64,000 nt of DNA from contig JAYUED010000008.1 of the NCBI GenBank assembly GCA_043739385.1, positions 893-64,892 of the forward strand. The letters run 5' to 3'. Both the position numbers and the translations under genes were made by a program. Below are positions 21,951-24,025 of this stretch, in pieces. The notes below the pieces were generated by a model, which did not search any database, was not told the origin of the DNA, and saw only the letters and a program-made list of their open reading frames with translations. Positions within the stretch are counted from its first letter, which is position 1, and each line of letters begins with the position of its first letter. Source of the stretch: Betaproteobacteria bacterium. GTDB taxonomy: Bacteria; Pseudomonadota; Gammaproteobacteria; Burkholderiales; Burkholderiaceae_C.

Positions 21951-22238
21951 ATGAACACCACTTCCGTTAAAGCAGTAGCTTCTTTTGGCCTCACCGCCGC
22001 CATGCTCGCACTGTCCGCTGCCGCCTTCGCCGCTGACGCTCCCATGGGTGCGATGGGCAAGTCCATTGGCGCTAACGACCAAGTTCACTGCTACAAAGTT
22101 AACGACTGCAAAGGCACCGCTGATTGCAAAACAGCTGACCATAGCTGCAAAGGCATGAACACTTGCAAGGGTCAGGGCTTCAAGGCTTTGTCCGCTGGGC
22201 AGTGCCTGACCAAAGGTGGCACCATCTCCGACCTGTGA
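21951..22238 (+). CDS. bufA: 6-Cys secreted precursor peptide (BufA2-like)
   Basis: Signal [31 protein letters not shown]. The core [40 protein letters not shown] has three C-K-G triads. The gene sits immediately upstream of an MNIO gene. Confidence 0.75.
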   Translation: [95 protein letters not shown]

Positions 22239-22255
22239 CCTGACCCGTTACTTCA

Positions 22256-24025
22256 GTGAACGCCAGCGTCTCGCTGACTGCACCCAGTCCAGGTTTTGGG
22301 CTGGGATTGCGTACTCCACATTACCCTGATTTTTTAGCCCAAACCCAGCGTTTCACCGGACTGGACTGGCTGGAAATCATCACCGACAACTTCTTGGTCG
22401 ACGGCGGTAAACCGCTGGTGATGTTGGAACGCATTCGCCGCGATTACCCCATGGCGATGCACGGCGTGGCGATGTCGCTGGGCGCACCTGGCGGCGCTGA
22501 TGTTGCCTACTTGAAACGCGTCAAAGCGTTGGCTGACCGTGTGCAGCCGCTCTGGGTGTCTGACCACTTGTGTTGGATCGGCCCTGGCCCCGAGCAGCTT
22601 TACGATTTGTATCCCTTGCCCTATACCGACGAGGCTGCCCGCCACGTCATCCAAAGTATCAGACAAGCGCAAGACATCTTGCAACGCCGTTTGGTATTAG
22701 AAAACGTGTCCAGCTACATCGCCTTCAATACATCGGCGTGCAGCGAATGGCAATTTTTAAGCCATATTGCGCAAGAGGCGGACTGCCTTTTACTGGTGGA
22801 CGTAAACAACATTTTTGTAAGCAGCGTGAACCACGGTTTTAACGCCTTGGACTATCTCGACGGTCTGCCCGCCAACCGTGTGCAGCAAATCCACCTCGCA
22901 GGTCATACCGACCGAGGTGACCATATCATCGACACACACGACCACCCGGTGGCCGCACCTGTCTGGCAGCTGTATCGCGAAGCGTGCCAGCGGTTCGGTG
23001 CTGTTGCCACCATGATCGAGCGCGACGACCATATTCCACCGTTGAATACCTTACTGGACGAATTGGCCGTGGCCCGTCGCACAGCCAACGAGGTGCTTTA
23101 CGCCACTGCGCTGGTCAGCCCTAGTTCGTATGCATCAAGCCATGGAAAAGACCAAAACCAAAATCATAAGATTGGCTTGCAGTGCTCTACAGATGAGCAC
23201 AGTGGGCTGTCAAAACTACAGCGAAACCTGTCCACCTACATTTTGAACCCTGCTGCCCTGCATGAAGCCACCCTGGCCCGTGCGTTGCTGCCTGAAAGCA
23301 AAGTGGATGCGGGCAGCGATTCGAATACTCCCGATACCAACGATACCAACCCGACAGGACAAGCCGCCCAGCGCCTAGGCATCTATCACCACGCCTACCG
23401 CGCCCGGATGGCGGAGGTACTGGCCGACAGCTTTGCCAAAATCAACCTCTACATGGGCAGCGACGCCTTCGAAGCCGAAGCCACCGCATTTGCAGTTGCC
23501 CATCCCCCCCTTACCCGTCGCCTAGGCCGATACGGCGCAGACCTGCCGAACTTTTTGGCAGAGCGCTACCCGCACAATCCCGAGTTGTTTGAATTAGCCC
23601 AGTTGGATTGGGATTTGCGCGAATGCTTTGACGGCCCCGATATCCCCGCGCTTGACGCCGCCAGTGCGGCCAGCGATGTGGCCCAAAGTTGGTTGACACG
23701 CAGTGCCCCGTTGCACCCTAGCGTGCGTCTCCGCAACCTCAGCACCAACGCTGTGCAACTCTGGAAAGCCATCGACGACGACCACGAGGTTCCCGCACCC
23801 GTCACGCTGGAGGTGCCACGCACCCTCTTGGTCTGGCGCAAAGGCTTGCAACCGCATTTCCAGACGCTGGACGCCGCCCCGGCACAGTTCATTGCCTGTT
23901 TATCCGAAGGCCAGTCCATCTGGCAAACCTGCGAAGCTTTGCCCGAACTTGCCGCGCCTGAAGCGCTGGGCAGCTGGCTCCAGGCTTGGTGGGCAGAAGG
24001 TTGGCTGCGCGCCGCAGAGTCTTAG
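22256..24025 (+). CDS. Fused MNIO (DUF692) - DUF2063 protein
   Basis: 589 aa with a GTG start. The N-terminal ~285 aa carry AMHGVAMSLGA, WVSDHLCW, LENVSSY, LLVDVNNIFVSS, IHLAGHT, IIDTHDHP and FGAVATMIERD. A Ser/Asn/Asp/Thr/Pro-rich linker follows. The C-terminal ~270 aa are DUF2063-like (RLGIYHHAYRARM...ELAQLDWDL). Confidence 0.85.
   Translation: MNASVSLTAPSPGFGLGLRTPHYPDFLAQTQRFTGLDWLEIITDNFLVDGGKPLVMLERIRRDYPMAMHGVAMSLGAPGGADVAYLKRVKALADRVQPLWVSDHLCWIGPGPEQLYDLYPLPYTDEAARHVIQSIRQAQDILQRRLVLENVSSYIAFNTSACSEWQFLSHIAQEADCLLLVDVNNIFVSSVNHGFNALDYLDGLPANRVQQIHLAGHTDRGDHIIDTHDHPVAAPVWQLYREACQRFGAVATMIERDDHIPPLNTLLDELAVARRTANEVLYATALVSPSSYASSHGKDQNQNHKIGLQCSTDEHSGLSKLQRNLSTYILNPAALHEATLARALLPESKVDAGSDSNTPDTNDTNPTGQAAQRLGIYHHAYRARMAEVLADSFAKINLYMGSDAFEAEATAFAVAHPPLTRRLGRYGADLPNFLAERYPHNPELFELAQLDWDLRECFDGPDIPALDAASAASDVAQSWLTRSAPLHPSVRLRNLSTNAVQLWKAIDDDHEVPAPVTLEVPRTLLVWRKGLQPHFQTLDAAPAQFIACLSEGQSIWQTCEALPELAAPEALGSWLQAWWAEGWLRAAES

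Follow-up and report, generated by a model that had tools for sequence, protein, structure and literature searches.

A probable Buf2-type bufferin operon of a betaproteobacterium in which the maturase and its DUF2063 partner form a single polypeptide

The founding member of the Buf2 type of bufferins is the buf2 operon of Caulobacter vibrioides (bufA2B2C2, CCNA_03001-02999), which is described without a bufD gene (Leprevost et al. 2024, PMC11626156). Here we analyse a locus of closely similar layout on a stretch of 64,000 nucleotides from a Betaproteobacteria bacterium (contig JAYUED010000008.1, positions 893 to 64,892; hereafter the window, in whose numbering all coordinates are given), in which the multinuclear non-haem iron (MNIO) enzyme and its DUF2063 partner are encoded by one gene. 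As in Caulobacter, the precursor carries a predicted Sec signal and six cysteines with central Cys-Lys motifs, the order is precursor, MNIO enzyme and DUF2063 partner without a DoxX gene, a buf1ABCD operon is co-resident, and control by an extracytoplasmic function (ECF) sigma factor is probable. In contrast, BufB2 and BufC2 are separate proteins in Caulobacter, whereas they are joined in one polypeptide in the window. The system is already known, and the locus represents a variant of it by domain fusion, the joining of the partner to the enzyme being its sole departure; current hidden Markov models (HMMs) would annotate it automatically as a Buf2-type bufferin cluster, and no new kind of system, chemistry or biological role is revealed.

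Partners of PME-type 1 are usually stand-alone proteins of ~250-260 aa whose gene follows that of the MNIO enzyme, whereas the partner in the window is the C-terminal half of the same open reading frame (ORF). A close counterpart in this respect is the engineered HvfB-HvfC fusion of a 2026 preprint, which was built to overcome the weak binding between enzyme and partner; it is reported to be active and to outperform the co-expressed pair, an advantage ascribed to the otherwise weak complex (bioRxiv 10.64898/2026.07.17.739211). In both cases the C-terminus of the MNIO enzyme is joined to the N-terminus of the partner in one chain. However, the HvfB-HvfC fusion is artificial and linkerless and acts on an EGKCG (Lys-Cys) oxazolin precursor, whereas the window protein is natural, has a disordered linker of ~20-28 aa and belongs to the Cys-Lys class. 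The FonABC system and the captophorins likewise combine an MNIO enzyme, a PME1 partner and a Cys-rich precursor, and they yield 5-thiooxazole metallophores; by the categories given in PMC13097082, the window precursor falls among captophorins with 'multiple Cys-Lys motifs', and its enzyme has an Asp at the presumed position of FonB-Phe250. Unlike in the window system, FonB and FonC are described there as two distinct proteins, and the precursor FonA belongs to the Lys-Cys repeat type. A natural MNIO enzyme with a substrate-recognition module in cis is MovX, with a C-terminal winged-helix/RRE domain; MovX is described as having the winged-helix addition only and as partner-free, while in the window a full partner of DUF2063 and RRE domains is fused.

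The features of the locus are as follows.
21951..22238, plus strand: bufA2, precursor of a Buf2-type bufferin, 95 aa (NCBIfam NF050166 and ORF list).
21951-22031, plus strand: predicted Sec signal peptide of BufA2, residues 1-27.
22032-22235, plus strand: BufA2 core, 68 aa.
22256..24025, plus strand: bufB2-C2 fusion, one uninterrupted ORF for a single-chain MNIO maturase and PME-type-1 partner of 589 aa.
22292..23083, plus strand: MNIO (DUF692) TIM-barrel domain, residues ~13-276 (matches to PF05114, NF050167 and 3BWW).
23114..23197, plus strand: variable inter-domain linker, predicted disordered, residues ~287-314 (alignment and predicted local confidence, pLDDT).
23198..23695, plus strand: DUF2063 helical domain, residues ~315-480, with a variable loop at ~342-372 (PF09836 and helices of the AlphaFold2 model).
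23711..24022, plus strand: RRE-type winged-helix domain, residues ~486-589 (topology of the AlphaFold2 model and fold matches).

For comparison we used 80 related BufA2 loci from species-representative genomes, of which 15 carry a single stop-to-stop ORF across both halves. The precursor gene has an AGGA Shine-Dalgarno sequence 8 nt before its ATG, and its product scores 97.1 bits with the NCBIfam model Cu_RiPP_BufA2 (NF050166), whose cutoff is 60; the match spans positions 3-78 of the 79 in the profile. Its N-terminus, read by eye, has the n-h-c regions of a predicted signal peptide, is hydrophobic and ends in AFA|ADAP, a pattern common to the homologues. The six cysteines lie at precursor positions 47, 53, 59, 66, 72 and 85 (core positions 20, 26, 32, 39, 45 and 58), and each of the central four has a Lys after it, in the contexts CKG, CKT, CKG and CKG, which are kept in 14 precursors of the fused clade. 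A preliminary description of this DNA had placed the precursor in the six- or twelve-Cys, BufA2-like class and had counted six cysteines with three CKG triads, both of which hold, with CKT as a fourth Cys-Lys pair. The unmodified core has a computed monoisotopic mass of 6907.15 Da. In all 15 fused loci the fused gene is immediately preceded by a homologous precursor gene. In three other related loci (L017, L019 and L020) two BufA2-like precursor genes stand in tandem ahead of the MNIO gene, and in L019 all four central cysteines lie within ACKG repeats.

The fused ORF opens with a GTG at 22256, 17 nt past the bufA2 stop codon (the spacing had been given as 18 nt), and closes at 24025. Pfam models place the MNIO family (PF05114) at residues 14-276 (E 5.8e-102, 340.9 bits) and DUF2063 (PF09836) at residues 321-434 (E 7.4e-15; 55.4 bits on the full protein and 57.2 bits on the C-terminal half alone, with a cutoff of 27.2), so that the suggested HMM scan bears out the earlier view of one polypeptide with an MNIO half and a DUF2063-type half. 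The N-terminal half scores 350.3 bits against the NCBIfam equivalog model MNIO_BufB (NF050167, cutoff 310), and a sequence search of the PDB matched it to 3BWW with an E value of 1.9e-41. All columns that are identical across 3BWW, TglH and MbnB are present (H69, H104, E149, D182/N185, H213, D226/H228, E255), as are the MNIO motifs HG.., SDH, EN, DxxN, HxAGH, DTH and ERD; in an alignment of 47 fused homologues, H69, H104, E149, D182, N184/N185, H213, D226, H228, E255 and D257 are invariant. Substitution of N175, D242 or H244 is reported to abolish the activity of HvfB (bioRxiv 10.64898/2026.07.17.739211), and the counterparts of these residues in the fused enzyme are N184/185, D226 and H228. 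The sequence ERDD (with D258) of the fused enzyme aligns to ERDF of 3BWW. According to PMC13097082, MNIO enzymes of the Cys-Lys class have, in place of FonB-Phe250, an Asp that contacts the substrate Lys; if the Phe of ERDF in 3BWW corresponds to FonB-Phe250, as its motif context suggests, D258 would fit the Cys-Lys class.

The structure of the whole chain was modelled with AlphaFold2 from the 47-sequence alignment, and folds were compared with Foldseek. The model has a mean pLDDT of 82.2 and a global confidence score (pTM) of 0.81, with low confidence only at residues 1-4, 108-110, 293-307 and 351-357, and it matches 3BWW (TM score 0.83), MbnB (0.80-0.82) and TglH (0.72), each with probability 1.00. 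In a separate model of residues 301-589 (pLDDT 89.6) the DUF2063 helices are of high confidence, and the RRE-type domain consists of three strands followed by three helices with pLDDT >90. This model gave significant matches to TglI (8HCI_A, 8HI7_A) and NGO1945 (3DEE), with probability 1.00, and it weakly resembled TbiB1 (5V1V_A), an RRE protein. TglI and NGO1945 are the MNIO partner proteins of solved structure, and the matches to them indicate that the C-terminal half is a complete PME-type-1 partner, with DUF2063 helices and an RRE winged helix. A low-complexity linker of ~40-90 aa had been proposed between the halves. A linker does exist, being unalignable and of variable length across the 47 homologues and having pLDDT <50 at residues 293-307, but it comprises only ~20-28 aa (residues ~287-314), and the Asp/Asn/Thr/Pro-rich stretch at residues ~342-372 belongs to DUF2063, where it forms a variable loop behind the first two helices.

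We propose, with a probability of roughly 0.85, that positions 21851-24025 constitute a two-gene Buf2-type bufferin (captophorin) operon that works as follows. The sequence analysis documents the gene layout, the families and folds, their conservation and the recurrence of the fusion, and the chemistry, the copper function and the regulation are inferred. The bufA2 product would be made as a Sec-signal precursor and bound in the cytoplasm by BufB2-C2 through its C-terminal DUF2063 and RRE half. The N-terminal MNIO TIM barrel would then use O2 for four-electron oxidations that convert the central Cys-Lys cysteines (core Cys26, 32, 39 and 45) to four 5-thiooxazoles. The peptide would be exported by Sec, its signal peptide cut after AFA and the outer Cys20 and Cys58 joined in a disulfide, and the product of ~6.9 kDa would chelate copper in the periplasm. 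The covalent fusion would stand in for the usual translationally coupled bufB/bufC pair and enforce a 1:1 stoichiometry. The model for this scheme is Buf2 of C. vibrioides, which is reported to lose 4 Da at each of four central cysteines and to form one disulfide (-18 Da in total), to absorb at 305 nm and to be copper-induced and copper-protective (PMC11626156).

Transcription of the operon would probably depend on an ECF sigma factor encoded next to the co-resident buf1 operon (locus 1), through a promoter common to both precursor genes. The features concerned are these.
21851..21877, plus strand: candidate ECF (sigma-F-like) promoter, with TGTAAGAAGTT at 21851-21861 and TGAC at 21874-21877.
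16536-17120, minus strand: ECF sigma factor (NCBIfam PRK12520/TIGR02943; Sigma70_r2/r4_2).
16348-16578, minus strand: small anti-sigma factor, 76 aa (anti-sigma family match).

The element TGTAAGAAGTT lies 100 nt upstream of the bufA2 ATG, and a second exact copy at 17218-17228 lies 94 nt upstream of bufA1, with TGAC at 17240-17243. The exact 11-mer occurs only these two times in the window, and TGAC follows each copy after 11-12 nt. The arrangement resembles the motif GTAACC-N16-CGAA of C. crescentus sigma-F (PMC3511200), which drives both buf operons in Caulobacter. Of 73 related loci, 27 have TGTAAG or GTAAGA ahead of bufA2, mostly with CGAC 15-17 nt later, against a background of 2.8% of 220-nt windows. 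The interval 21400-24400 showed no noteworthy sigma-70 promoter or terminator. The sigma and anti-sigma genes (16348..17120, minus strand) overlap each other and are divergent from locus 1, and the shared motif makes the sigma factor a candidate regulator of both bufferin operons. In Caulobacter the corresponding pair is SigF and the membrane protein NrsF, whereas the small anti-sigma factor of the window, which reads H-MLA-C-KA-C (HxxxCxxC), has no obvious membrane segment. A divergent pair of an ECF sigma factor and an NrsF-like multi-pass protein lies directly upstream of bufA2 in 5 of the 15 fused loci.

Several points weigh against the proposed operon and its mechanism. No recognisable Shine-Dalgarno sequence precedes the GTG at 22256, which makes the start site and the expression level uncertain. 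Searches of the PDB with the C-terminal half, as a single sequence and as a 47-sequence profile, gave no significant match to a partner protein, and its identity as a partner is supported by the Pfam family and the predicted fold; the likely packing of the two domains against each other is read from the pTM value. The promoter motif was found post hoc, and a shuffle control that allowed one mismatch gave at least two matches in 15 of 100 shuffles. Finally, the thiooxazoles of Buf2 itself were assigned by analogy with Buf1 and not by nuclear magnetic resonance (PMC12452194).

This last point bears on the alternative that survives best, although we regard it as unlikely, namely that the precursor receives a modification other than 5-thiooxazole (e.g. 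an oxazolone or thioamide), or that the peptide is directed at a metal or stress other than copper. MNIO chemistry is diverse, the Buf2 assignment is described as resting on mass and ultraviolet absorption only (PMC12452194), and possible roles with further metals are suggested by MerC-bufferin fusions and by 'gig' operons, which are induced by gold. However, the enzyme scores as a BufB equivalog, and all characterised MNIO-PME1 systems are reported to install 5-thiooxazoles and bind Cu (PMC13097082).

The second alternative is that the fusion is decaying or non-functional and that the precursor stays unmodified or is served in trans by BufB1 and BufC1. Besides the lack of a visible ribosome-binding site before the fused gene, this would be favoured by the presence of a complete buf1ABCD operon 2.3 kb upstream of the Buf2 locus. 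The view that the window holds a second MNIO locus was correct, and the first, a buf1-type operon, is composed as follows.
17312..19950, plus strand: locus 1, buf1-type operon (Pfam DUF2282, PF05114, PF09836 and DoxX).
17312-17590, plus strand: bufA1 (DUF2282 precursor).
17654-18589, plus strand: bufB1 (MNIO).
18586-19440, plus strand: bufC1 (DUF2063).
19462-19950, plus strand: bufD1 (DoxX).

The fused protein shows evident constraint, with ~120 residues invariant across the 47 homologues, including all columns of the MNIO metal site and many positions in the partner half, which argues against decay. Service in trans is opposed by the divergence of the two systems, because the fused halves share only 39% identity with BufB1 and only 21% with BufC1; these values also indicate that the fused system is a paralogue and not a recent duplicate. 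In addition, BufB1 reads EWDT where the fused enzyme has ERDD, at the site presumed from motif context to determine Cys-Lys specificity, and BufA2 is accompanied by its own enzyme in 80 of 80 loci. We therefore consider decay or service in trans improbable.

That the C-terminal half is a DNA-binding regulator, which would make the protein an enzyme-regulator hybrid, is suggested by the Pfam title of PF09836 ('Putative DNA-binding domain') and by the deposition of NGO1945 (3DEE) as a putative transcription regulator, but it is very hard to uphold, since proteins with DUF2063 and RRE domains are described as obligate MNIO partners (PME-type 1) and NGO1945 has been reinterpreted in this sense (PMC12452194; PMC13097082), and since the best fold match, TglI, was crystallised in complex with its MNIO enzyme TglH.

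An assembly or sequencing artefact that merged separate bufB and bufC genes through a lost stop codon or a frameshift was worth considering for a window taken from a metagenome assembly, the more so as bufB and bufC of the nearest unfused relatives overlap by ATGA and a single-base error could merge them, but this explanation is effectively refuted by independent contigs, fused homologues and fused species genomes. The identical 589-aa product was called on 7 contigs, of which the four listed come from four different samples (ENA ERZ28573551 and ERZ27314313; Logan SRR23617226 and SRR23617217). The best 120 homologues, with 58-98% identity, all combine the two Pfam domains in one chain of 539-623 aa, and some of them are named "MNIO family bufferin maturase" by NCBI. 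The linker is in frame and shows recognisable residue conservation in homologues of 80-87% identity. The 15 fused loci among the 80 comprise 14 from species-level genomes of Burkholderiales (Rhodoferax, Inhella, Hydrogenophaga, Acidovorax, Polaromonas, Ideonella and Aquabacterium), including the isolates Inhella crocodyli and Ideonella sp. B508-1, and one from an alphaproteobacterial metagenome-assembled genome. When MNIO domains were compared by neighbour joining, the Burkholderiales fusions grouped with the window protein in a single clade, and the alphaproteobacterial fusion was placed elsewhere. Together, the contigs, the homologues and the 15 fused loci establish that the fusion is genuine, as had been claimed.

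For a wider view, 1.84 billion cluster representatives at 50% identity were searched exhaustively with HMMER, and the best 150 matches were examined. Both halves were present in 95 of these 150, and 86 of the 95 had a complete MNIO domain. The fused form thus accounts for at least 86 clusters at 50% identity. These are scattered among unfused relatives, with at least 22 changes between the fused and the unfused state on a rough neighbour-joining tree of this biased best-150 sample. Besides the nearest unfused relatives with their ATGA overlap, four other unfused loci (L015, L017, L020 and L066) have bufB and bufC in frame with one stop codon between them (junctions near 6825-6865 of each locus); here one substitution would fuse the genes, and these loci are possibly intermediates or reversions. 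The overlap and the single intervening stop codon indicate that the mutational path to fusion is short. Release of a free BufC by an internal translation start in the linker appears unlikely from the sequence, as residues 278 to 384 include no in-frame ATG and the in-frame GTG and TTG codons have nothing like a Shine-Dalgarno sequence ahead of them. On balance we favour the view that natural BufB-BufC fusions may act as self-sufficient single-chain thiooxazole synthases which have arisen many times.

The fused, DoxX-less architecture had been presented as uncharacterised. We found no description of natural MNIO-DUF2063 fusions in the full-text literature searched, nor in PMC12452194, PMC11626156, PMC13097082 and PMC12710340, although subscription papers or supplements may mention them, and the HvfBC preprint names MovX and ChrH as exceptions to stand-alone partners with natural BufB-BufC fusions unmentioned (bioRxiv 10.64898/2026.07.17.739211); however, the fused form is not rare in databases.

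Nor is the lack of DoxX unusual, contrary to the implication of the same account. It was right that no DoxX gene follows position 24025 and that the next gene (24036-25988, minus strand) is convergent; this gene encodes a 650-aa protein with at least three Ig-like repeats followed by DUF3500. But no DoxX gene was found downstream in any of the 80 related BufA2 loci either, and its absence is the rule for Buf2. By lacking DoxX like the Caulobacter buf2 operon and all 80 related loci, the locus fits the Buf2 subtype and not the Buf1 layout. In L001 a DoxX match immediately ahead of bufA2 (E 1.2e-5) coincides in part with a sigma-factor ORF on the minus strand and is probably spurious, and the sole convincing upstream DoxX, in L065, lies at the end of an adjoining buf1 operon. 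Past the fused gene, the 15 fused loci show no accessory gene that is conserved, and the Ig-like/DUF3500 neighbour is not kept beside fused bufferin genes in other genomes.

Some further genes around the two bufferin operons deserve mention. Between the operons (19972-21440, plus strand), an intact EgtD-like histidine methyltransferase (PF10017, 337 aa) follows a DinB_2 ORF of only 140 aa, where a full EgtB with DinB_2 and FGE-sulfatase domains would be expected; this looks like a truncated egtB remnant, and the 140-aa call recurs in the independent assemblies L081 and L082. At 26190-28049 (plus strand) an ORF of 619 aa (593 aa as called in L081) comprises a MetX-like alpha/beta hydrolase and MetW, a second apparent fusion of usually adjacent genes. 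In L082, which is from the same organism, there are two genes (236 and 352 aa), and this fusion may be variable or reflect an assembly difference. The gene at 15676-16152 (minus strand) encodes a small RNA-binding protein of the RRM type, whose long tail is rich in Gly (GGGGGG... repeats).

Bufferins and captophorins, peptides modified by MNIO enzymes, make up a very large family, and work on their enzymology suffers from complexes of enzyme and partner that are weak and sub-stoichiometric. HvfB and HvfC are reported to have been fused artificially in order to obtain a homogeneous and more active enzyme (bioRxiv 10.64898/2026.07.17.739211); the same fusion appears to have been made repeatedly by nature, and the window provides a well-conserved example together with its cognate substrate of four Cys-Lys sites. 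The usefulness of a natural single-polypeptide complex for structural and mechanistic work, which the preliminary description had already pointed out, is thus the main value of the finding. Native sequences make it possible to test whether fusion alone is the source of the gain in activity, how the partner half presents a substrate that still bears its signal peptide, and what the native linker contributes. If natural fusions are indeed self-sufficient and recurrent, this would point to recurrent selection for an obligatory 1:1 coupling of enzyme and partner, the very limitation behind the engineering of HvfBC, and the Burkholderiales clade would supply a scaffold that is stable, optimised by nature and equipped with a native linker, on which a first structure of a bufferin MNIO enzyme with its partner and substrate could be based.

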